A stretch of DNA of 57,800 bases from an uncultured Gammaproteobacteria bacterium. GTDB taxonomy: Bacteria > Patescibacteriota > Patescibacteriia > Magasanikbacterales > UBA922. The notes beneath the pieces were generated by a model that saw nothing but the letters and a program-made list of their open reading frames with translations, did no database searches and was not told where the DNA came from. Location of the stretch: assembly GCA_964433095.1 (NCBI GenBank), contig CAYSPW010000004.1, positions 1 through 57,800 of the forward strand, read 5' to 3'. The position numbers and the translations under genes are program-made. Shown one piece after another: positions 15,403 through 28,051 of this stretch; position 1 is the first letter of the stretch, and every line of letters begins with the position of its first letter.

Positions 15403-15750
15403 TTAATTTCCATTTTCCGGTATATCGGTGCACACATAAGCGCATACTTGAGCGCAAAAATCGGCATCCGGCGCGCAGGGCGAGCCACAGCTGTCAAACA
15501 TACCCCCGCGCTGCTCACAATCCCTGATCAAGGCTTGCTGGTCCACGCTCATGTCGGTAGTATAAACGATCTTACTCGCATACATTTGCTCGACCGGGAC
15601 TTCTACACTAACCGGCTGATCCGTCTCATCGGGCAAAGGTTGAGCACCCTCTTCCTGTTTGGGATTAAACGAAACACATATTAAAACGCTCAAAAGAATG
15701 ACCACTATGATTGCTCCGATTGCGAGCAATATTTTTTGCATCCCGCTCAT
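15403..15750 (-). CDS. membrane-anchored Cys-rich small protein
   Basis: N-terminal TM helix, then DCEQRGGMFDSCGSPCAPDADFCAQVCAYVC (6 Cys in about 30 aa). Confidence 0.5.
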   Translation of the reverse strand: MSGMQKILLAIGAIIVVILLSVLICVSFNPKQEEGAQPLPDETDQPVSVEVPVEQMYASKIVYTTDMSVDQQALIRDCEQRGGMFDSCGSPCAPDADFCAQVCAYVCTDIPENGN

Positions 15751-15820: not shown

Positions 15821-16759
15821 TTAATTCGGCTTTGAAAAAAGAACGGTGAAATAGCTGGTGGAATTGGGCTGTTTTTTTTTCAAATAACGACCCGAATTGG
15901 TATGCCTGAGAATTTCCGCTTGACCGGCTCCGATCTGATCCATGCTGCGCAAAAAAACGAAAAGCGCGGACGGCGCGTCAATGTAGGAATTATCAAAAGT
16001 CAAGATCAAATCATAGTTGCGGTCCAGAATAGCTTGCCAGGTAATTTGATCTCTTTGCTCGGCTTCAAGATCACTCAAGTAATGTGAAAAGTCGAATGAG
16101 CCGATAATCAAAGTATTGTCCGCCCGAGCGAATTCGGCCAATTCTGAAGCCAGCTTTTCCAAATGATCAGTATCTTTGTTGTTGGTAATAACCAAGGGAA
16201 CGATATCAGCCTCGGAAAAATAGTGGGAAATGAAAGCTACTGTGGTTTTAATCGAATGTTCGGGAATGAAATTATCATTATCAAAAACCACCAAGCCTCG
16301 CTCAACCAATTGATCCAGCTTCTCATAATCGTTCTTGACAGTTCCGAACGGTGTTCGCCAGTCCACTCGGCCGCTGATCACCGTTTCCAGTCCCCGCCCG
16401 GCATGGTTGGGACCCAAAATTATTATGGTTTGCGGATTCTCAGTCCGCTTGAGTCGAACAAACAATTCGGCCATATACTCGGATACCAAATCATGATGCG
16501 GAATTATACCACCGTAAATTTTCTTAAGCTCTTCTGAATAATATTTTTGTTCCTTTTCCACGGCCGAATAAAATAACTCCCAGTTGTAATCCAGATCTAC
16601 AGTTTTAGCCCCAACGCCAACAGACCGTGTTTCAATAATATGATCACTGGCAAACCCTGATTTAATTCCTCCCCAACGATTCAACAGTAAAAACACCGCC
16701 AAGCCTATCAAGCCGATGACGGTGATTTTTAATATATTTTTTCCCGGTTTACTCAACAT
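15821..16759 (-). CDS. Memo-like / AmmeMemoRadiSam system protein B family, with N-terminal TM anchor
   Basis: GGIIPHHDLVSEYMAELF...IIILGPNHAGRG...GSFDFSHYL. N-terminal ILKITVIGLIGLAVFLLL. The ATG overlaps the stop of the giant gene by 11 nt. Confidence 0.7.
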   Translation of the reverse strand: MLSKPGKNILKITVIGLIGLAVFLLLNRWGGIKSGFASDHIIETRSVGVGAKTVDLDYNWELFYSAVEKEQKYYSEELKKIYGGIIPHHDLVSEYMAELFVRLKRTENPQTIIILGPNHAGRGLETVISGRVDWRTPFGTVKNDYEKLDQLVERGLVVFDNDNFIPEHSIKTTVAFISHYFSEADIVPLVITNNKDTDHLEKLASELAEFARADNTLIIGSFDFSHYLSDLEAEQRDQITWQAILDRNYDLILTFDNSYIDAPSALFVFLRSMDQIGAGQAEILRHTNSGRYLKKKQPNSTSYFTVLFSKPN

Positions 16760-19700
16760 TTTGTATGGTTATTCTACCGGCATCGGAGTAATTGATAATG
16801 TCTTGACTGTTCACCGACTGGATAACCGCCGGCTCAACCGTAAACTCTCCCAGTGAATTGACGCGCGCGTAATAGCTCCTGGTTGAACAATGACTGTTCT
16901 TGTATACGTTGACTTTTATCACGTTGTTGCGGCTTTGATATGGATAAATACTGCAATTATCGTAGCCGGCTTCACTTCTGTGGGCAGAGTGCTTGATAAT
17001 GCTCAAACCACTCGGCAGAATATCAGTGACCGTATAGGCGCCATCAATCGAGGCCGGGTCAATATATGGATCAAGCACGATCTGAACCACGTCATCTTCC
17101 TTGAACGAATTTGTTTCTTGACCATCCACCAAGTATTTCTTCCCAATGGAGGCATAGCTGTTCGGCCCCCGTCTCTGATCGATTTGTTCGGGAACGTCGA
17201 AATATGACACCGTGACTCCGACTTTGCCATCCACTTGCTCAACTGTCATTTTTTCATATTGTTCCGGTGTGATGGACAAGGCAAAAGTCCGTCCTTTTTC
17301 CATTTGTCTTTCAATCCGCTTACCGTCAATGGTCAAAGTAAAACTGACCGAACCCGGCTTCAGATGCTTCAATCCCTGCTTGATATACAGCAACTCTTCC
17401 AAATTTAGCAGAATCTCTTTGGTGTAATTTTTTTGCACGTAATTCCACAGTCTCTCATGATAAGAACTGTTTAGACCGGCGGCCAAATTGGCGGCGAGCG
17501 ACGTGGCGGACAGAATCTCATCCGAATTATCGTTCGGTTTAACGCGCGCCATGCTCTCAAATTCTTCGCCATGATCTTGCAATAATTGATTGAGTATATC
17601 ACGCGCCAATTCGGCGTCGCCCAACTTCTCGGCCGCGAGAGCCACGTACAACCTGTTCTTAACCGATAAATCTTCCCTTTCGGCCAGCTTGCGCACCGGG
17701 TACAAAACCGGTTCTTCCAAGGCGGACAGGCCGTACAGTGACAACGCCGCTTCATCTTGATTCAAATCGGTTTGATTGTAAAAACCGTAAAAATAGTTTG
17801 CCAAAGCGTTCCGGTCAAAAAAGCCGGGCACCAAAGCGGCCACTTTGGCCGATAATTCAAAGTCGGAATCGGCATAGGGCAGCAAGGCGATGCCGCCATC
17901 TTGCATTTGGAATAAATCTTTGTCAATTTCTTCTCGTTTGAATTTTTGTTCATCAAAATATATTTCTTTGTATCGCTCGGCCAAAACGCGCGCCAGCTTC
18001 TGATCAATCCTCTCTCCCCACGTCCAGCCCAGACTGGTCAATCGATTGTAAAATTTGCCCTGACTTTGATCAGAGAAAATCATTTTAAATCTACCTTCCG
18101 GCACAACGGTTAACTCAAGATCCTTGCTTAAATTGTAAAAATCGGTATATTCTTTTTTCAACCTGGAATCGATCACCGATATCGGCTTCACTACCAAATC
18201 GCCACCCGCTTCGGCTTGCACGGAATGGTAGAGAGGAAACACTCCCTTTCTCAGGCTGCCCAGGTTGAAATACTCGGGCACGTATGCTTGTCCGGATCGC
18301 TTCTCCTTCACGCCCAGATTTTCCACACTCAAAGAAAAATCTACTTTGTCTCCCTGCTTGAGCGCATTGCCGTAGGCTCTTAATTTTACTATCGGCTTAT
18401 CGCTTGTCAGATATTCGTCCGCGTAAGTACCGAGCACGAAAACCGGCTTGCTCACTTTGATATTGCCGGTAGACTGTCCGGCCAGCAATGATTTGCTTAC
18501 CGCTTTGGCGTTTATGCGCCAAGAAGTGAAGTTGTCCGGCAATTTGAAGGTGACTTCCCCCCGTCCATTGTCATCGGTGCGGCCGGAAAAGAATAACGCC
18601 GTATCCCTGAAATCCACTCTGGCTCCACCTTTTTCATTATGCACATATATTCCATTAGCCAGATAGGTATGGTAATTCTCAATGTGAAAGTTAAATACCG
18701 CCACCGTTTTGTCTACTTTTTCAATGCTTTGAATACGCACGTAATCACCAGACTCATTCAGCATAAAGTCGCCCACCTTTGCTTGACCGATCATCTGCCA
18801 GCCGTCGTTGATAAAAAATCTGTGTTCCGGAGTTACTTTTATGGAATCGTTTATTACGATATACCCGGGTACAACATGCTGAAAGGTTTCCACCACTTTT
18901 GCCTTGATTAATTTCTTTGTACGCGACGAATCATAGGTCGCGATTTCATCACCGACCACTATGTCTTGGATATTTTTTACACTGCCATCCGCCATGGTTA
19001 TCTTGGTACCGGCCAAAAAGCAGCCGGCTCCGCCTTCAGCTCCGCCTTGATCAAACTTTGGTTTTTCGTGCGAGCCGTATGTAAAAATTTCTCCGCCTTC
19101 CACGGTCCGGTACAAATCAACAAGCACTCCACTGTTATAATCTTCCCTGATCTTGTACAATGCTTCGTCAACCAAACTGATATTAAATCCGGATCTTACT
19201 CCTTTCCCCTCTCGGTCTTTTACGCTGATGTGCAAAGTGGCTTCCTGTCCGGGCTTGTAAGCTTGTTTATCGCTGGACACTTCAATCGTCAATTCGCGAT
19301 CATTTTCGGCCACTTTTATAATATAGCCGCTATCCGAAGAAGCATACCATCGATTTTCATAGGTGGAATGAAAAGTATCTCCGTCAAACCACACTCCTTT
19401 GAGCCTTAAATTCGGCATGTCTTGCTCGGAAAACTTAAAGCCGTATTGCGAATCCGCACTGACCCGGAAGTCGCGCAAACCGCGCTGCATTTTTAAATAA
19501 AGGAAATCGTTTTTGCTGGTTTCGGCCAATTGCTCTCCGTTATTGACAAACCCGACCTTGACCTGTTCTCCAATGGAATACTCATTTAAATCCTTGTCAT
19601 CGGTCGTTTGCTTATCTTTTATCTCCAGCTCATAAAAATCATTGTCAAAGTCGGACTTATAACGGGAATAATACACGGACGTGAAGAAACTCCTGCCGCG

Positions 19701-22349
19701 AGTGTCTCGAGCAAAAACCTTGATTCGGTAATTCTTGTCTTTATCGAGATTAAATTGGTGCCGATGTTCGCCATTTCCGCCGGTATTACCACTGTATTCG
19801 CCCACTTTGTTTTTATAACTATGGTATGAGTACCTCTTGCGTGTCAGCTTATTGATAAAATCGTAGTATGTGCCAATTTCCTGCTTCTCGTATCCGACCT
19901 CATATATCTCGGCTCTAAAATCAACATCGGTCCTTACCGGTCCGTGGTAATCATAATATATATTACCCTCACCGCCGTTGATCTTGTCAAAATTAAAATA
20001 CTCAAATTTGGTCGTTATTTCCGCACTGTCGTCGTCCAGTTCGTTCACTCGGACAGAGCCTAAGGTATCAAAACGAGCCACCACTACTCTGGTGCTGCCG
20101 CTCACTTCTCCCAACTCGGCTTTGGTCGGATATGCTTTAATGGTTCTGTGTGATACGCTTTGACAATAATTGCTTGATTTGGAACAATTACCCTCCAATG
20201 TGCCGATACCGGCCGAAGCCTCGCCCTGCTTATCGGTTATGACGTTTTTTCCATCAACCGACAGATCCAAATACGGTACCGGCGTGCCTTCAAAAAAAGA
20301 AGTTTCTAATTTCAAGTTAATATCTTCACCGCCGTAAACCGCGTATTTTTCCGGCGTTACTTCAATTTGGTATTCGGGCTTGAAATAGTCCTGCACCTCA
20401 ATGTATTCACGATTCACGAATTGATCGCCCGCGTATAGTTCGACGAAATAATATCCGCTCTTCAAATCTCGCAATTCAAATTCCGCGGAAAAGGTGCCAC
20501 CGGCGTCAAGCTCCACTTTTTCCTGTTGCAAAACAAGCGGTTCCAGATAATAATTGCGGTATTCATTTTTTACCAGCTTCAGTGATATGTCTTCATTTTC
20601 CAAACTCCGACCATCGCGATCCTGCAAAAATCCCCACAAGCGCACGGTATCATCGGTTCGGTAAACCGAACGGTCTTTTTTCAAAAGCACCCAATAGCTA
20701 CTCTTGCTTTCTTTGCTGCCGCCAAGCGAAAACAATGCCCGTTCCGAACCATGCTCAACAATAATGCTATCTTTAACTTTTTGGTCAATCTCGTCATAAT
20801 AGTTCACTTCAACCGTTTTCAATTCGTCAGTATCAAACACGACCAATCCTTCCCGATCCGAACTGAATTCACGGCCGCTCCCGGCCAATTTCACCGTGGC
20901 CCCGTCAATGGAAGCACCGGTTTGAATGTCTTTGAGCCAAACCAAAGTCCGGTCTTGCAACACATTGATGTATGCCGCTATATCGGACACCTGAAAAAAA
21001 GCTTGTTCGATTCGATCATCCGGAGTTCGCACTTCCAAAGCGTAAAAACCCACATCCAAGCTCTCGGGTAAAACCAAGTACTTGCTGTAGCCTGACTCTG
21101 ACTCTGTCGTACTCATCTCGGTTTCCATCACTTTGGACGCTCCGCCCAGATCAACCGTCGCCCTCGAACTCTGGTACGAAGCCCATTCTGGAATTTCCGC
21201 TTTTTTTTCGATCAAGGATCGGTAATTTTCCAACCCTCCCAAGTTATATACCGCCACTTGGTATTTAGTCCGGCTACCGTTTCCGTATTCATATACCTGA
21301 AAGTAAGGGGTTGTCCGGGGAGAAAATTCTCCGTAATTTTTACTGATGCCAAAACTTCGGTAGGGAGAATCGTCTTCATCTCTTTTGGTTTCAAACTGAA
21401 AAACAAAATCACGGTCCAATCGTTCATCCGAATTCTCAATGGGCAAATCTTGATCAACGGTCACCGTATAAACGGTGCCGGGCTGCAGTTGATCGGGAAC
21501 CAAAACCAAAGTGCGCCCGTGCTTCTCAAATTTATATTTCACGGCCGGCACAATGGAGACGTGTTTTTCAAAATTATGATAGCCTTCATGGCTGAAATAT
21601 ATCTCTATGCCCATGTTGGTCGGCACTCCATCAACTTGGTCGCGCGGCAGAGTGCCGTAAATTTTAAAGCGGTCTTTTACTTGAAAAGCCCAGGAATAAT
21701 CGCGTTCAACGGTCAAACCCCGGGAATTGATGTACGCGGAGTTGATTTTTAAATTGTAAACTGTTCTGTCTTGTAAAGTCTGTTTGGGCGTGACTTTGAA
21801 TTCCTGGCCGCTCACCACTTCAAAATCAAATTCCGACTCCGGGCTGAGTGTAATATTCTTTCTAAGCAAATCCGGGTCTTCAATTACGTCTTTGCTTTTG
21901 ATCATAAAAGCGGTATCGCTTTCCACGCCCAAAGAATCGGACGCGGTCGCTTCCACGGAAAAATTATCCTCGGCATAAACCGGATCAATAAGCAATTTGG
22001 AAAAATCATCAAAAGGTCCGCCCATGCTCGGTCGCCAGATATAAATGCTTGAGAGCACCACCAGAATAACTAAAGCCACGATGGCCACCGGCACCATTCT
22101 CTTTGGCCGGAACAACGCTTTGATGGAAGCGATGTTTAAACTCGGTTGTTTCATAATAATTTCTTGTTTGCGCCTTTTCTCCAGTATTTGTTTTTTAAGA
22201 GATTGTTTAAACTGTTGAGAAGCAGGCTGTGAATTAAAAACTCCTTGCTTGAGAATGTCCTCTGTTTCTTTTAACGCCGGCGGCGCCGAATTATTACGTT
22301 TTTTGTCTTTTTTCAGAAAATTAAACATATTATTTTTCGCTATTTTCAT
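16749..22349 (-). CDS. giant single-pass membrane protein, alpha-2-macroglobulin-like (MG-domain) ectodomain with embedded Hint domain; candidate anti-sigma factor
   Basis: 1866 aa with a TM helix at aa 85-105. A2M-type motifs: EYIEVQDYFKPEYQIEV, NISLVDEALYKI, VDFRDTALFFSGRTDDNGRGEVTFKLPDNFTSWRINAKA. No CxEQ thioester motif. An alternative start (M8) lies at 22328. Confidence 0.8.
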   Translation of the reverse strand: MKIAKNNMFNFLKKDKKRNNSAPPALKETEDILKQGVFNSQPASQQFKQSLKKQILEKRRKQEIIMKQPSLNIASIKALFRPKRMVPVAIVALVILVVLSSIYIWRPSMGGPFDDFSKLLIDPVYAEDNFSVEATASDSLGVESDTAFMIKSKDVIEDPDLLRKNITLSPESEFDFEVVSGQEFKVTPKQTLQDRTVYNLKINSAYINSRGLTVERDYSWAFQVKDRFKIYGTLPRDQVDGVPTNMGIEIYFSHEGYHNFEKHVSIVPAVKYKFEKHGRTLVLVPDQLQPGTVYTVTVDQDLPIENSDERLDRDFVFQFETKRDEDDSPYRSFGISKNYGEFSPRTTPYFQVYEYGNGSRTKYQVAVYNLGGLENYRSLIEKKAEIPEWASYQSSRATVDLGGASKVMETEMSTTESESGYSKYLVLPESLDVGFYALEVRTPDDRIEQAFFQVSDIAAYINVLQDRTLVWLKDIQTGASIDGATVKLAGSGREFSSDREGLVVFDTDELKTVEVNYYDEIDQKVKDSIIVEHGSERALFSLGGSKESKSSYWVLLKKDRSVYRTDDTVRLWGFLQDRDGRSLENEDISLKLVKNEYRNYYLEPLVLQQEKVELDAGGTFSAEFELRDLKSGYYFVELYAGDQFVNREYIEVQDYFKPEYQIEVTPEKYAVYGGEDINLKLETSFFEGTPVPYLDLSVDGKNVITDKQGEASAGIGTLEGNCSKSSNYCQSVSHRTIKAYPTKAELGEVSGSTRVVVARFDTLGSVRVNELDDDSAEITTKFEYFNFDKINGGEGNIYYDYHGPVRTDVDFRAEIYEVGYEKQEIGTYYDFINKLTRKRYSYHSYKNKVGEYSGNTGGNGEHRHQFNLDKDKNYRIKVFARDTRGRSFFTSVYYSRYKSDFDNDFYELEIKDKQTTDDKDLNEYSIGEQVKVGFVNNGEQLAETSKNDFLYLKMQRGLRDFRVSADSQYGFKFSEQDMPNLRLKGVWFDGDTFHSTYENRWYASSDSGYIIKVAENDRELTIEVSSDKQAYKPGQEATLHISVKDREGKGVRSGFNISLVDEALYKIREDYNSGVLVDLYRTVEGGEIFTYGSHEKPKFDQGGAEGGAGCFLAGTKITMADGSVKNIQDIVVGDEIATYDSSRTKKLIKAKVVETFQHVVPGYIVINDSIKVTPEHRFFINDGWQMIGQAKVGDFMLNESGDYVRIQSIEKVDKTVAVFNFHIENYHTYLANGIYVHNEKGGARVDFRDTALFFSGRTDDNGRGEVTFKLPDNFTSWRINAKAVSKSLLAGQSTGNIKVSKPVFVLGTYADEYLTSDKPIVKLRAYGNALKQGDKVDFSLSVENLGVKEKRSGQAYVPEYFNLGSLRKGVFPLYHSVQAEAGGDLVVKPISVIDSRLKKEYTDFYNLSKDLELTVVPEGRFKMIFSDQSQGKFYNRLTSLGWTWGERIDQKLARVLAERYKEIYFDEQKFKREEIDKDLFQMQDGGIALLPYADSDFELSAKVAALVPGFFDRNALANYFYGFYNQTDLNQDEAALSLYGLSALEEPVLYPVRKLAEREDLSVKNRLYVALAAEKLGDAELARDILNQLLQDHGEEFESMARVKPNDNSDEILSATSLAANLAAGLNSSYHERLWNYVQKNYTKEILLNLEELLYIKQGLKHLKPGSVSFTLTIDGKRIERQMEKGRTFALSITPEQYEKMTVEQVDGKVGVTVSYFDVPEQIDQRRGPNSYASIGKKYLVDGQETNSFKEDDVVQIVLDPYIDPASIDGAYTVTDILPSGLSIIKHSAHRSEAGYDNCSIYPYQSRNNVIKVNVYKNSHCSTRSYYARVNSLGEFTVEPAVIQSVNSQDIINYSDAGRITIQNVE
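18636..19022 (-). other. Hint / bacterial intein-like (BIL) domain, aa 1110-1238 of the giant protein
   Basis: CFLAGTKITMADGSVKNIQDIVVGDEI (block A), VTPEHRFF (TxxH), VFNFHIENYHTYLANGIYVHN (blocks F/G), followed by Glu. Coordinates checked in frame with the ORF start. Confidence 0.8.
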
Positions 22350-22908
22350 AATTTTTGTAAACTAAAGCGAATTTTTTCAATGCCCGATGCAGCAGCACTC
22401 CCGCGTTATTGGACGTTATTCCCATCACCTCGGCTATTTCTTTATTATCCAATTCGGCGAAAAACTTCAATTGCAGAATCTTTTGATGTTTGACTTTCAA
22501 ATCCTTTATGGCCAACCGCACCAGCTCGGCCTGCTGCCGGCTCACGGCCTGCCGCTCCGGCGAATCGGCATCGTCGCTTACATGGCTGACGCTTTTAATG
22601 TCCACCTCTCTTTTTCTGCCTTGCTTACGGTAATAATCAATCAAATTGTTATTAGCTATGGTATAAAGCCAGGAAGAAAAACCGCCTTTTTTTGTATTGT
22701 AGTCGCCCAACGCGCAAAAAGCTTTCATAAAAGTCTTTGACACTATATCCTCGGCTTCTTCCCGATTGCCGGTACGTTTGAAGACAAATCCGTAAATTCT
22801 GGGAAAATAGTGGTTATAAAGAATTTCAAAACAGGCATCATCATTTTTTGCTGTTTCCACCATAACGGCTTCATTTTCCAAAATATTGTTTGCGGTGCTT
22901 GCCTCCAT
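22330..22908 (-). CDS. ECF-type sigma-70 family RNA polymerase sigma factor
   Basis: Region 2 (FEILYNHYFPRIYGFVFKRTGNREEAEDIVSKTF) and region 4 HTH (LDNKEIAEVMGITSNNAGVLLHRALKKF). The stop overlaps or abuts the giant gene start. Confidence 0.85.
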   Translation of the reverse strand: MEASTANNILENEAVMVETAKNDDACFEILYNHYFPRIYGFVFKRTGNREEAEDIVSKTFMKAFCALGDYNTKKGGFSSWLYTIANNNLIDYYRKQGRKREVDIKSVSHVSDDADSPERQAVSRQQAELVRLAIKDLKVKHQKILQLKFFAELDNKEIAEVMGITSNNAGVLLHRALKKFALVYKNYENSEK

Positions 22909-23023
22909 AAACTTCAACGAATTGAATTGGAATTCATTACAATTAAATTATATCAATTATACTCCTTTCCACGGGGTCGTTCAATTTTGACCGCCGGTAA
23001 GCAGCGTGCTAACATACAGGTAC

Positions 23024-23638
23024 ATGCAAACACTAAAACAATTGGTACAATCCATGAGGAAAAAAGGCATACCGCGCCATAGATCAATAAAAGATGCGTT
23101 TTTGAACATTGACCGCAAAAATTTTGTATTGGACAAATATACGGACTCGGCTTATGAAGACCGGCCATTGCCCATCGGCAAAGGGCAAACCATATCCCAG
23201 CCCTCAACCGTGGCCTTCATGCTGGAACTGCTCCGGGTCAAATCCGGTCATAAGATATTGGATATCGGCAGCGGCTCGGGCTATACCACCGCTCTGCTTG
23301 CCTATCTGGCCGGGGACAAAGGCAAAGTCTGGGCCGTGGAAAGAGTGGCGGCCCTGAGAGAACAAGCCCGAAAAAACCTGTCCGCCTATCCGAGCCTGAA
23401 TTACGAACTGCTGGCGGCCGGAAAAAAAATCGGTCTGCCCGGAAACAAGTTTGACCGTATTTTGGTATCGGCCGCGGCCGATGAACTGCCCAAGGAACTG
23501 TTGTCTCAGCTGGACAGCCCGGGAAGATTGGTAATTCCGATTCATGATTCCGTGTATCTCTACCACAAAGACTCAAAAGGCAATCTCAAAGCGGAAAAAC
23601 ACTACGGCTTCAGCTTTGTGCCGCTGATTGAGGAATAA
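23024..23638 (+). CDS. pcm: protein-L-isoaspartate O-methyltransferase
   Basis: GKGQTISQPSTVAFMLELL and ILDIGSGSGYTTALLA. Confidence 0.88.
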   Translation: MQTLKQLVQSMRKKGIPRHRSIKDAFLNIDRKNFVLDKYTDSAYEDRPLPIGKGQTISQPSTVAFMLELLRVKSGHKILDIGSGSGYTTALLAYLAGDKGKVWAVERVAALREQARKNLSAYPSLNYELLAAGKKIGLPGNKFDRILVSAAADELPKELLSQLDSPGRLVIPIHDSVYLYHKDSKGNLKAEKHYGFSFVPLIEE

Positions 23639-23772: not shown

Positions 23773-25794
23773 TCAATTACTGACCTGAATCTGTTCGCCT
23801 TCTTCCGGCCGGCAGGCCACAACCGTAATTTTTCTATCACCAAATTCTTTTTTTACCGCGTAATATGTTCTTTCCGGACTACCATAATGAGGATCATAAG
23901 GGATTTTACTTAAATATTTTGTCACCAGCTCTTCGGATAAATCCAAACACTCATCAGATATTATCACCTCGGCGTCTTGACTGCCGGTACCCCAAAAAGA
24001 AAAATCATACAATTCCCAAAAAAATCCGTGATTGGCGTAATTGGTATAAAATCTGACTCTGGCTTGAGTAATATTTCCTTCACTATAACTATATTCCACC
24101 CATTGCCTGTCTGAAAAAGCTCCTTGGTACACGTCCTCCCAAACACCGTCCTTGTAAACGTCCACGTCCACGGCGTTTGATTCGCTGTTATACAAAGCGT
24201 ATATTCTTAATTTATTGGAATTAATACCCGGATGATTGAAATATACAAAAGAACTCCATTGGGGATCACCAATGTTATGATAGCTGCGGCCGAAGGTGGT
24301 CGTATCATCGTCCATTATATCGGCCTCGGATTCCCATTTGTTACTGGGATCGGAATAAGTCGTAGGTAGGGTCCAGCCGATACCCTCCTCTTCGGTAGTG
24401 AATTCTTGATCGGAACAATTGACCGTGCCGACCGAATTTTTTAATTGCGCTCTGAAGTGATAGCCGGTCATGCCGCTTAAACCGGTAATCGACTGCTTGA
24501 ACACCTCACCACTGACCTTGCCGCTTTCCCAGCCGGTATTTTGACTATAGTTTGAGGTCAATCCGTATTGAAATCTATACTGATTCGGTTCGCCGCCATC
24601 GTCTATCACCTGGCCTTGCAGCAGAGCTGAATTAGCTCTGATGGCCGTGGCAGGCTTGGAACCGCATTGCGGCAGACCGATAGTTGAAGAGGCTTGATAG
24701 AATTGCAATTCAAAAAACCAATAATAGTATCCGGAAACTTTATAATTATACCTGAACCTGGCTTTCTCCACTTGACCTTTACCGTAAGTAAGCTCAATCC
24801 ACTGCACGTTCCAATCTTCTTCATTACCACCCTGAAAAACATCCTGCCACGCACCGTCCGTATACACATCAACGTCCACCTCTTCAATATGAGCGTCCAA
24901 ATAATCAACGTTCAAGCGCAGCCGATCTGACGTAATCGGACTGTCTAAAGTCAAAACCAAATACTGTCCCCAGCCGCTGCCGCCATATTGATTGGTGGCG
25001 TAAGTGCCCGTGTTGTCATCAAAGGCGTTCGTTTCGTTTACCCACTGATTGCCCGGATCTTCAAAACCGGTCGGATTAACCCAGCCGGATGAAGGCGGAT
25101 CCCACCAAAAAATATCACGAGTGGCCGATCGTCCGGCATGATTTCGCGCTTCAATTCTGGTGACATATCTTTTATCAACAGTATCATGAACCCGCCAAGC
25201 GGCCCGCCACGTACCGTTGTTTTCATCGCCCCGGATCAAATCAAGCTCAATTTTTTCCAGACTGCCCATATCGGCGCTGACATGATCCACACCGTATTTA
25301 TCCTCAATCTCCACTTCTACCGTTAAAATATCTCCGGGAATTACCTTGCTGGGAAAAGCTCTGGCGCTTTTGATCAGAGGCTCATCCCCCGGCGGTCGCT
25401 CTTTTTGCCGCTTATCAGATACGGCGTGAACAGTACTCTTTCTCTTTAAATATTGTTTAACGCGCTCAACCAAATTATCATTACCACTATGGAGCTGAAC
25501 CAAATTGCCGCAAGTGACGGCACAGCCCGAAGTGGCCGTGCCAAGCATTCTCAAAGCGCCGTCCAGCTCGGGTATTTCGGTATTGTTTTCTATGGTGTAT
25601 AGATTGATTGCTTTCAATATATTATCAATGTCCATATATCTTTGCGCGTTTCTGCTATCGGCAAATCTTTGAATGGGTTTTAAAGAAATTAAAACTATCA
25701 CCGCCAGCACGGCAATTACGGTTATTACCAACAAAAGTTCAATTAAGGTAAATCCTTTTCCGTTTAAATTATTTTTTTTAAAAAAATCTATCAT
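23773..25794 (-). CDS. type IV pilin-like protein with a very large globular insertion
   Basis: Prepilin signal with G|FTLIELLLVITVIAVLAVIVL; pilin-like C-terminal strands. The insertion holds two homologous ~130-aa modules and an FN3-like segment. Confidence 0.8.
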   Translation of the reverse strand: MIDFFKKNNLNGKGFTLIELLLVITVIAVLAVIVLISLKPIQRFADSRNAQRYMDIDNILKAINLYTIENNTEIPELDGALRMLGTATSGCAVTCGNLVQLHSGNDNLVERVKQYLKRKSTVHAVSDKRQKERPPGDEPLIKSARAFPSKVIPGDILTVEVEIEDKYGVDHVSADMGSLEKIELDLIRGDENNGTWRAAWRVHDTVDKRYVTRIEARNHAGRSATRDIFWWDPPSSGWVNPTGFEDPGNQWVNETNAFDDNTGTYATNQYGGSGWGQYLVLTLDSPITSDRLRLNVDYLDAHIEEVDVDVYTDGAWQDVFQGGNEEDWNVQWIELTYGKGQVEKARFRYNYKVSGYYYWFFELQFYQASSTIGLPQCGSKPATAIRANSALLQGQVIDDGGEPNQYRFQYGLTSNYSQNTGWESGKVSGEVFKQSITGLSGMTGYHFRAQLKNSVGTVNCSDQEFTTEEEGIGWTLPTTYSDPSNKWESEADIMDDDTTTFGRSYHNIGDPQWSSFVYFNHPGINSNKLRIYALYNSESNAVDVDVYKDGVWEDVYQGAFSDRQWVEYSYSEGNITQARVRFYTNYANHGFFWELYDFSFWGTGSQDAEVIISDECLDLSEELVTKYLSKIPYDPHYGSPERTYYAVKKEFGDRKITVVACRPEEGEQIQVSN

Positions 25795-26033
25795 TAGCAA
25801 CGACTAATATATTATTGCCAAACAAAAAATCATGCTTTCACCAGATATTATACATCAAATCGAAAAAAAAAAGAAAGAACCGCCTTTTTGATCATTTACT
25901 CAAAAAATCTTGAACGGTCAATAAAAAAAATCGGGGCGGTATCGATTTAAAAAAAACAACAAACCGACATTGGCAAATTAAATTATTGATTGATTGGCGA
26001 CAGCTTGCGAGTTTTTCTGTGTATTTAAAACAT

Positions 26034-27109: not shown

Positions 27110-28051
27110 CTAAATATTCTTAGCGAGCGCGGATTTAAATTTATTTTTAACCTGCCGCAATTGCAGATCATCATGATTATATCTTGTTACCGAACCGTCC
27201 GCATTCTTTATCTTGTATATATCTTCCTCATTAGTTAAAAAACTCGTCTCCACAGCCAGGCCGAAATCTATTATATATGGCAAGGCGGAGTCATAATCCA
27301 CCATTACATTTCCGGCATGCAAATCTCTATGATGAATTTTTGTTTTATGCATCTTGTCGACAAATTCCTGAACCGCGCCAAAAAATACGTCAAAATCAAA
27401 ATTATCCGGCACTCGCGACGTATCAAGCATTAATTCACTAAGGCTTGCTCCGTTCACCCGCTCCATGGAAATAACCCTAAAATCTTTGAGGGCGGCGCAA
27501 TACGCCACGGCTGGTACTCTGGCCTTCAATTGATCGTTAAATTTGGACATCATTATCTGCAAGTAGGCCTCTTTGAGTAAATTATTTCCCTCTCTATATT
27601 TTTGCCAATCTTTGACCACCTTAAAACATTTTGATGGATCTTCTAGGTTGACAAAAACCTCGGCCACTTGACCGGCTCCAATCAGTTTGTTCTGTTTGTT
27701 TGAAACCAATTCCCGAATAGAACTTATTTCTTCTTCCTGTTCGTAAAAAGGGGCCTCCGGAGTTATCAAACCCTTGTAACGATCTATTTCATCAAAATAG
27801 AAATCAGATTCCAGGTGCTCGGCCGCTTTGGCCCGCCTTTGGGAAAGATTTATTAAATCTTTTTTAAATTTTAACCAAACAGACAGATCTTCCATTTCAC
27901 TGTCAATAAGGTCGTCAAATTTTTTCTCCCAGATTTCACTCAAGCTCGGCGGTACTTTTTCAAGCAACCCCTCCACCTCGTCTATCAAATCATCCAATTC
28001 TTTGGCGGCAAAATCTTGTTTTTCTATCCTCCTTGCTTCCGCGTAAGTCAT
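27110..28051 (-). CDS. eukaryotic-like protein kinase fold protein with ~120-aa helical N-terminal region
   Basis: Gly-loop IGAGQVAEVF, CFKVVK lysine, catalytic loop HHRDLHAGNVMV, and DFGLA. Confidence 0.7.
   Translation of the reverse strand: MTYAEARRIEKQDFAAKELDDLIDEVEGLLEKVPPSLSEIWEKKFDDLIDSEMEDLSVWLKFKKDLINLSQRRAKAAEHLESDFYFDEIDRYKGLITPEAPFYEQEEEISSIRELVSNKQNKLIGAGQVAEVFVNLEDPSKCFKVVKDWQKYREGNNLLKEAYLQIMMSKFNDQLKARVPAVAYCAALKDFRVISMERVNGASLSELMLDTSRVPDNFDFDVFFGAVQEFVDKMHKTKIHHRDLHAGNVMVDYDSALPYIIDFGLAVETSFLTNEEDIYKIKNADGSVTRYNHDDLQLRQVKNKFKSALAKNI

Follow-up and report, generated by a model that had tools for sequence, protein, structure and literature searches.

Can a giant surface protein with the fold of alpha-2-macroglobulin (A2M) serve as the anti-sigma factor of the sigma gene that lies next to it? 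The question is raised by a stretch of 57,800 nucleotides from contig CAYSPW010000004.1 (assembly GCA_964433095.1), which was analysed as a whole and is called the window below. On its minus strand, a gene for an extracytoplasmic function (ECF) sigma factor is followed by a gene for a single-pass membrane protein of 1866 residues. The original prediction regarded the second protein as a candidate single-pass anti-sigma factor with an A2M-like sensor, and supposed that a HINT module within it could act as a built-in site-1 cleavage. Patescibacteria, or the candidate phyla radiation (CPR), have tiny genomes with very few recognizable regulators, and how these bacteria sense their surroundings or hosts is largely unknown.

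Our analysis indicates that the locus is probably an autoregulated ECF sigma/anti-sigma operon of Patescibacteria (Magasanikbacteria-like), made up of a promoter, the sigma gene, the gene of the giant protein and a gene for a Memo-like protein. By comparative evidence, the identification of the giant protein as an anti-sigma sensor is strongly supported even though the protein lacks the zf-HC2 domain. This part of the prediction is supported by the co-occurrence of the sigma gene with an N-terminal extension of the giant protein, by the portability of that extension, by a relative (P0068) with a zf-HC2 domain and by a conserved promoter. The part that made the HINT module the site-1 cleavage is not.

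The sigma gene and the giant gene

The two genes and the parts of the giant protein that concern the sigma factor are as follows.

22330..22908, minus strand: ECF (group IV) sigma gene for a protein of 192 aa that has only regions 2 and 4 (Pfam and NCBIfam matches).
16749..22349, minus strand: giant single-pass membrane protein, candidate anti-sigma factor with an A2M-fold ectodomain, 1866 aa (1859 aa from ATG 22328).
22098..22328, minus strand: type-A module at the cytoplasmic N-terminus, aa 8-84, proposed to bind the sigma factor as an anti-sigma domain (alignment, AlphaFold2 and hidden Markov model (HMM)).
22035..22097, minus strand: single transmembrane (TM) helix, aa 85-105 (Kyte-Doolittle maximum 2.83, positive-inside charges, AlphaFold2 helix at model residues 75-98).

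The sigma protein matched the Pfam families Sigma70_r2 with 67 bits and Sigma70_r4_2 with 40 bits, and the NCBIfam model sigma70-ECF (TIGR02937) with 118 bits against a cut-off of 42.9. With regions sigma-2 and sigma-4 only and a length of 192 aa, it belongs to ECF group IV by domains and length. An ECF-type sigma gene adjoining the giant open reading frame (ORF) was thus rightly recognized in the prediction. The nearest solved relatives are SigW (5wuq), BldN (6dxo) and the SigE-type factors, with SigW the most similar, and BldN is also found among the nearest NCBIfam relatives. The gene stops with TAA at 22330-22332. Its start had been placed at TTG 22917, which was corrected to ATG 22908. 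The TTG falls within the promoter's conserved -10 element, and 192 aa is also the length in the public gene call, so ATG 22908 is almost certainly the true start.

For the giant ORF, both of the predicted starts are present. ATG 22349 overlaps the sigma gene by 20 nt and gives 1866 aa, and ATG 22328, the start in the public gene call (P0001), leaves a gap of 1 nt and gives 1859 aa. The two ORFs overlap or abut, and the coding strand between them shows no terminator-like site. For both genes, the closest relative is found in a metagenome-assembled genome (MAG) of Candidatus Magasanikiibacteriota, with 67% identity in the giant protein and 59% in the sigma factor.

The topology of the giant protein is as had been predicted, with a basic cytoplasmic N-terminus of about 84 aa, one TM helix and everything else outside the cytoplasm. 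Residues 1-84 contain 21 K+R against 6 D+E (pI 10.8), no segment of the protein other than residues 85-105 is strongly hydrophobic, and the 40 residues after them contain 1 K+R against 9 D+E. The basic N-terminus, the single TM helix and the acidic stretch behind it lead us to an N-in/C-out orientation. The giant gene therefore has the genomic features of a membrane anti-sigma gene: it lies directly downstream of the sigma gene in the same direction, and its product has a single TM helix and a cytoplasmic N-terminus.

Co-occurrence of the sigma gene and the N-terminal extension

A scan of one genome per GTDB species yielded more than 576 relatives of the giant protein. The best 80 loci, nearly all of them from Patescibacteria, were analysed, and the co-occurrence counts rest on the 70 loci with a complete gene. 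An ECF sigma gene stands directly upstream on the same strand in 34 of these 70, with gaps from -44 to +197 nt, mostly between -22 and +21 nt. The distribution is far from even: 34 of the 42 members with 35 or more residues ahead of the TM helix have an upstream sigma gene, whereas there is not one among the 28 whose N-terminus is short and signal-anchor-like (Fisher p ~1e-12, uncorrected for phylogeny). The pairing, whose conservation was left to be checked when the prediction was made, recurs in dozens of independent genomes, far beyond chance. Beside zf-HC2, the sigma-linked N-termini fall into at least four unrelated types, namely type A (the window) and types B, C and D, and every type goes with a sigma clade of its own.

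It may be argued that the sigma factor is only a dedicated activator of the operon. The giant protein would then not bind it, the N-terminal extension would serve for insertion, localization or another partner, and the sigma factor would be controlled transcriptionally or by an unlinked factor. ECF sigma factors without anti-sigma factors do exist, which counts for this explanation. We nevertheless regard it as unlikely, since the module occurs only where a sigma gene is directly upstream and the short-N-terminus relatives have no sigma gene at all; moreover, a generic role in insertion or localization would not follow one sigma clade.

In two loci of the sigma-less type (L019:12478-13050 and L056:4795-5322), an ECF sigma gene occurs close by in another position: behind the Memo gene in one, and upstream in divergent orientation in the other. 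Also, several MAG records titled 'uncultured Gammaproteobacteria' or 'Pseudomonadales' (L013, L014, L019, L020 and others) carry this otherwise CPR-restricted cluster, and their titles are probably mislabelled.

Domain swaps

The portability of the N-terminus is seen from two directions. In P0068, from a Clostridia-like contig, the same A2M-like ectodomain is preceded at the N-terminus by a genuine anti-sigma domain of the zf-HC2 family (36.6 bits against a cut-off of 22.2), and the gene shares 4 nt with the ECF sigma gene upstream of it. Among the A2M-like relatives, the zf-HC2 domain was found in P0068 only.

The second swap was traced from the homologues of the window sigma, by reading what follows each of them; metagenome loci were collected with the sigma alignment. 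In L086/L087, a sigma factor 46% identical to that of the window is followed by an 886-aa protein with a DUF3160 ectodomain (497 bits), and the first 90 residues of this protein are a clear type-A module with a TM helix ('RNNPEDAALLETEGKIKSLVFNEQPASENFRNDLKNRILASRRK'). In L088, the sigma factor is 56% identical, and its gene is overlapped by the gene of another type-A-DUF3160 protein. A sigma factor with 48% identity precedes a type-A-TM-VWA protein in L093. Finally, in L089 (51% identity) the type-A N-terminus is carried by an A2M which bears both the thioester (GCVEQ) and a HINT domain, and the gene is broken by a 10-N assembly gap. An earlier reading of L089 as a 'split' version, with separate genes for a 189-aa anti-sigma factor and an A2M, was rejected because the break is this assembly gap. 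The type-A fusions outside the window, from HMM and domain matches, are listed below.

L086:5764-8424: type-A module with DUF3160.
L088:7060-9528: type-A module with DUF3160.
L093:3628-5688: type-A module with VWA.
L089:7030-12353: type-A module with A2M.

An HMM of the type-A N-terminus matched the DUF3160, VWA and L089 proteins at E = 1e-15 to 1e-19. When it was run over all ORFs of 90 loci, no match was found except directly behind a type-A sigma gene, and the same holds for 80 metagenome loci. The DUF3160-coupled sigma factor with 56% identity is nearer to the window sigma than most A2M-coupled ones, from which it follows that the ectodomains were exchanged within the clade, while the sigma factor, the N-terminus and the promoter stayed together. 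From the two reciprocal swaps, we conclude that the N-terminus is the sigma-linked part of the protein. Both swaps speak against a sigma factor that is merely an activator, as the module moves with the sigma gene and its promoter onto DUF3160 and VWA ectodomains, and in P0068 a bona fide zf-HC2 anti-sigma domain takes the equivalent position.

Promoter

Two promoter candidates precede the sigma gene.

22916..22941, minus strand: ECF-type promoter TGTAAT-N16-CGTT, a motif conserved upstream of close sigma relatives.
22956..22984, minus strand: candidate promoter of the sigma-70 kind, TTGAAC-17-TATAAT, lying before the ECF-type one (a consensus match only, at 10 of 12 positions).

In the window, the G of GTAAT is 32 nt upstream of the sigma ATG, and TGTAAT-N16-CGTT has no other strict match within the 57.8 kb. 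We counted as close sigma relatives those which match the window sigma at E < 1e-30 (33 loci). GTAAT-N16-CGT is present in 31 of the 33, against a background rate of 0.026 per 270 nt, and in 24 of these its G lies 31-33 nt from the ATG. The consensus over the relatives is aGTGTAAT-a-N15-CGTTAT, and the same motif was also found upstream of the DUF3160- and VWA-coupled sigma genes. In its -35 AAT, its invariant -10 CGT and its spacing, the motif resembles ECF promoters such as sites of the SigX/SigW/SigM type. An autoregulatory ECF promoter has an AAC-like -35 element and a CGT-containing -10 element; both are found here, with a -35 element that ends in AAT, not AAC. The conservation of the motif suggests that the window sigma recognizes its own GTAAT-N16-CGT promoter. 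As for the second candidate, it could give transcriptional control of the sigma gene, a point in favour of the activator-only explanation.

It was also observed that, in nearly all relatives, some 7 nt separate the end of the -10 element from the sigma ATG (22908..22941, minus strand, in the window). With the promoter so near the ATG, the sigma mRNA is probably leaderless or nearly so.

The type-A N-terminal module

In the alignment of the type-A N-termini, the conserved motif is [RC]N..x..aLLE.e.kI...(9-11)...PAs..F...LK..IL..R, with three invariant residues F40, L44 and R52 (F47, L51 and R59 in the numbering of the 1866-aa protein). AlphaFold2 predicted two helices in the latter numbering, aa 24-38 (22236..22280) and aa 45-67 (22149..22217), with a predicted local distance difference test (pLDDT) score of up to 94, and after these two main helices a short helix and then the TM helix. 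The second helix reads SQQFKQSLKKQILEKRR in the window.

The HxxxCxxC zinc motif is absent from the N-termini of types A to D. The prediction had noted the lack of the classical zf-HC2 motif in the window protein, and motif scan and profile searches agree with it; by its sequence, the type-A module is not of the zf-HC2 (PF13490)/class I family. A single-sequence search with the 78-aa N-terminus against 1.84 billion representatives returned family members and fragments only. Homology between the type-A and type-B N-termini was also considered. The profile-profile comparison aligns one 16-residue helix ('F...L[KR]..[IL]L') with a probability of 30%, which is too weak, and the idea was rejected.

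Even if the module binds the sigma factor, it might act positively, as FecR does on FecI, by activating or delivering it. Membrane-bound sigma regulators with a positive role are known, the FecR type being an example, and the genomic evidence for the link between sigma factor and module applies here equally. However, no similarity to the FecR N-terminal domain was found in the Pfam scan, and the nearest solved sigma relatives (SigW, BldN and the SigE-type factors) are all under inhibitory anti-sigma factors. We consider a FecR-like action improbable, slightly more so than the activator-only explanation.

Proposed mechanism and its assessment

The operon could work in the following way. The sigma factor would recognize its own promoter GTAAT-N16-CGTTAT, directly before the nearly leaderless sigma gene, to which the giant gene is translationally coupled. 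The cytoplasmic module of about 80 residues, a so far undescribed one with two predicted helices, would bind the sigma factor and hold it at the membrane. One TM helix links the module to a surface ectodomain of A2M fold, comprising macroglobulin (MG) domains, a bacterial intein-like (BIL)/HINT domain at the bait position, and CUB, thioester-containing domain (TED) and MG8 parts without a thioester. Damage to the ectodomain or its consumption would then lead to degradation of the anti-sigma factor, the likeliest cause being proteolytic attack on an A2M-type protease trap. The freed sigma factor would induce the operon again, giving more of the A2M-like protein and of its Memo-like partner. The order and coupling of the genes, the domains and A2M fold of the giant protein, the conservation of the promoter, and the module's strict association with sigma genes and its portability are supported by the observations themselves; the binding of the sigma factor by the module, the nature of the signal and the release by proteolysis are the steps that we infer.

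Several points weigh against this mechanism and the anti-sigma reading in general. The co-occurrence counts are not phylogenetically independent, and 8 of the 42 relatives with an apparently long N-terminus have no upstream sigma gene, although most of the eight look like low-complexity or over-extended start calls. The profile search of the N-terminus against anti-sigma domains, proposed with the original prediction, was run against Pfam, NCBIfam and PDB and gave no significant match, known anti-sigma domains included. The type-A module is shorter and simpler than the four-helix anti-sigma domain of class I, and AlphaFold2 gave no confident tertiary packing for the N-terminus alone (pTM 0.27). 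The absence of a detectable anti-sigma domain, and a short module predicted without tertiary structure, also favour the explanation in which the sigma factor is an activator only. Among the annotated ORFs of the window there is no gene for a site-2 protease (M50/S2P), and the signal and the release mechanism are pure inference.

The A2M-fold ectodomain

Outside the membrane, the giant protein contains the Pfam domains Big_5 (aa 228-321), MG2 (558-640), A2M_BRD (920-1066), PT-HINT (1120-1238) and A2M (1257-1305). Apart from the HINT domain, the ectodomain has the following parts.

19152..21668, minus strand: N-terminal ectodomain with further MG-type beta domains (Pfam, and profile matches to MG domains of ECAM, TEP1, C4 and C5).
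21387..21668, minus strand: Big_5 (Pfam).
20430..20678, minus strand: MG2 (Pfam).
19152..19592, minus strand: A2M_BRD, the bait-region domain (Pfam).
16752..18632, minus strand: C-terminal MG7-CUB-TED-MG8-type module, aa 1240-1866 (AlphaFold2 and Foldseek).
17370..18062, minus strand: helical TED-like domain, aa 1430-1660 (AlphaFold2 model).

A profile built from 50 family members matched E. coli ECAM/YfhM (E = 1e-22), Salmonella A2M, human A2M, CD109, C4, C5 and TEP1. Together with the Pfam matches to MG2, A2M_BRD and A2M, this gives the series of MG domains with a bait-region domain that characterizes an A2M. The AlphaFold2 model of the C-terminal 627 residues (pLDDT 90, pTM 0.81) has the order beta, all-helical (aa 1430-1660), beta. 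In a Foldseek search against PDB, it was placed on C5, ECAM, Salmonella A2M and C3 at E = 1e-24 to 1e-22, over the architecture MG7-CUB-TED-MG8. By these profile matches and the placement of the model, the fold of the A2M/thioester-protein superfamily is confirmed for the ectodomain. The CxEQ thioester motif was found neither in the window protein nor in any of 78 family members. The anchor is the TM helix, not a lipobox, and at the bait position the window protein has its HINT domain, flanked by AEGGG and [DE]KGG, where HINT-less relatives have a short Gly-rich linker. In public annotation, members of the family are called 'hypothetical', 'YfaS' or 'polymorphic toxin-type HINT domain-containing protein'.

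As a separate observation, the C-terminal model reaches a TM-score of 0.61 with protease-activated ECAM (4ziq, 4rtd), and a much lower one of 0.35 with native ECAM (5a42). The difference may come from the modelling itself, or it may hint at an 'activated-like' resting state of the thioester-less protein.

The HINT domain

18636..19022, minus strand: BIL A-type-like HINT domain, aa 1110-1238 (Pfam PT-HINT 44 bits; BIL domain 2lwy of PDB, E = 3e-18).

The domain has exactly 129 residues in all 33 aligned HINT-bearing members, from Cys1 ('AEGG-G|CF..GT') to 'YVHN'. In the window it contains Cys1, a TPEH block (T-P-x-H in the family) and the terminal His-Asn. In the window, the terminal Asn is followed by E; among the 33 relatives this place is taken by D or E, in rare cases by Q or S, and in none by C or T. 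A canonical intein has a Cys, Ser or Thr nucleophile at this +1 position, and since the window has Glu there, its HINT domain is not a canonical intein. The features of an A-type BIL domain (HINT fold, Cys1, C-terminal His-Asn and no +1 nucleophile) are all found in its sequence, as these are defined in PMC7765530, which summarizes Amitai 2003 and Dassa 2004. Before the insert the protein aligns to the MG6-beta of C5, and after it ('R..F.D.A.F') to human A2M just past the bait region, so the HINT domain occupies the bait/anaphylatoxin loop.

The proposal that HINT autoproteolysis is a built-in site-1 cleavage which starts the release of the sigma factor has some basis in the domain itself, which has the residues for self-cleavage at both its N- and C-terminus (Cys1, the TxxH block and the terminal His-Asn) and resembles a solved BIL domain. 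Its distribution tells otherwise. HINT domains are about as frequent with a sigma gene (31/34) as without one (31/36), HINT-less members with the same type-A N-terminus are still sigma-coupled (L082, L097, L101), and the sigma-coupled DUF3160 and VWA partner proteins have no HINT domain. Its position does not fit either. Some 1000 residues separate it from the membrane, and it sits within the A2M fold, so that cleavage would leave no short stub of the kind that site-2 proteases need. This is also the site at which C3, C4 and C5 are cut into two chains that stay together, and a very large ectodomain would remain on the TM helix. A role as site-1 cleavage is thus very improbable, the least credible of the explanations weighed here. 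From these sequence comparisons, we conclude that the HINT domain would serve the A2M-like function and not the signalling switch. It probably turns the precursor into a C3-like molecule of two chains, or else cuts itself out of the bait loop.

We also considered whether the thioester intermediate of the HINT domain replaces the missing CxEQ. The idea was weakened by the sigma-coupled A2M of L089, in which a HINT domain and an intact GCVEQ thioester coexist.

The Memo-like partner and neighbouring genes

15821..16759, minus strand: Memo-like gene of the AmmeMemoRadiSam protein B family, whose product is anchored by an N-terminal TM segment (115 bits to Pfam Memo, 123 bits to TIGR04336; TM seen in the translation).

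The Memo-like gene overlaps the stop of the giant gene by 11 nt. A gene of this kind lies directly downstream, usually overlapping, in about 45 of the 70 genome loci, with or without a sigma gene, and in 8 of the 9 metagenome loci that reach past the end of the A2M-like gene. The pairing of A2M-like and Memo-like genes is therefore more widespread than the sigma pairing. The Memo-like gene is often fused to a PGA_cap/CapA domain, and it also follows the DUF3160 variant.

The remaining neighbours are listed below.

15403..15750, minus strand: small protein (115 aa) anchored in the membrane and Cys-rich at its C-terminus, encoded next after the Memo-like gene.
23006..23638, plus strand: PCMT gene, divergently transcribed.
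23773..25800, minus strand: 675-aa protein with a prepilin-type N-terminal methylation motif, very large and pilin/pseudopilin-like, just past the PCMT gene.
27110..28051, minus strand: 313-aa protein with a eukaryotic-type Ser/Thr protein kinase domain (Pkinase 49 bits).

The Cys-rich ORF was rejected as a part of the system, as no homologue was found at that position in any related locus. The other genes around the operon are an ordinary chromosomal core (YidC, NusA, TrpRS, RNase J, GroEL, GyrB, RF1, RF2 and FtsW). Together with the Magasanikiibacteriota relative of the sigma and giant genes, they place the window on a CPR/Patescibacteria chromosome.

Implications

The locus suggests an ECF signalling module that is specific to the lineage and has a defined promoter, an anti-sigma domain that is both new and portable, and the first case of a fold of the alpha-2-macroglobulin/complement type as the sensor of a transcriptional switch. 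The sigma factor, the 80-aa peptide and the promoter make up a directly testable system. The locus also points to a conserved envelope pair of A2M-like and Memo-like proteins in hundreds of CPR species, and a HINT domain, self-cleaving by its sequence and fixed at the complement maturation loop, bears on how machines of the thioester-protein kind are activated.

A bolder proposal goes further. The A2M/complement-fold ectodomain would be a consumable protease sensor wired directly to transcription. Attack on the surface protease trap, or conformational 'firing' of it, would destroy the anti-sigma factor and free the sigma factor, and in this way the cell would sense hostile proteases and renew its shield. 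The BIL domain at the bait position would process the precursor into two C3-like chains, and the N-terminus of about 80 aa would be a new class of portable anti-sigma domain, used on A2M-like, DUF3160 and VWA sensors. Taken as a whole, we hold this proposal to be speculative and rather doubtful.

Comparison with known systems

In full-text literature searches, no work was found on anti-sigma factors of the A2M type, on macroglobulins with BIL domains or on the ECF systems of CPR bacteria, and nothing relevant for DUF3160.

The layout is like that of SigW/RsiW and SigE/RseA, in which the sigma gene is followed by a translationally coupled gene for a single-pass N-in/C-out protein, and the promoter is of the ECF autoregulatory type. 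SigV/RsiV is the closest in logic, since the ectodomain of that anti-sigma factor is itself the receptor for the threat (lysozyme). Unlike these three systems, the window has a cytoplasmic domain which by sequence is not zf-HC2/class I, and an ectodomain of about 1760 aa with the A2M/complement fold, and its release by proteolysis is putative. A short helical sigma-binding peptide, as in the class II factor CnrY (with CnrH, PDB 4cxf) and the class III factor RsbN (with BldN, PDB 6dxo), would fit the two predicted helices of the window module. However, the module has no sequence similarity to any solved anti-sigma chain, and the likeness to CnrY and RsbN is in size and helicity only.

With the bacterial A2Ms (E. 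coli ECAM/YfhM and Salmonella A2M), the window protein shares the MG domains, the bait-region domain and the MG7-CUB-TED-MG8 module, and with the thioester-less relatives of the YfaS type it shares the lack of CxEQ. It differs from the bacterial A2Ms in that an N-terminal TM helix with a cytoplasmic domain anchors it where they have a lipoprotein signal, its bait position holds a HINT domain, its partner gene is Memo-like and not PBP1C, and a sigma gene is coupled to it. In complement C3, C4 and C5, a furin site and the anaphylatoxin (ANA) domain are placed in the same loop as the HINT domain of the window (MG6-beta to MG6-alpha/MG7), and A2M has its bait there. In contrast to complement, where a convertase acts, processing in the window protein would be autocatalytic, by the HINT domain. 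Cys1, the C-terminal His-Asn and the lack of a +1 nucleophile are common to the window HINT domain and the A-type BIL domains (PMC7765530). BIL domains are described from hypervariable regions of non-conserved proteins, whereas the HINT domain here stands at one fixed site of a conserved family with a constant length of 129 aa. In general, an ECF sigma factor with a membrane anti-sigma factor is a well-known kind of system, and the anti-sigma module, the A2M-fold sensor and the BIL domain at the bait position are new variants of it.

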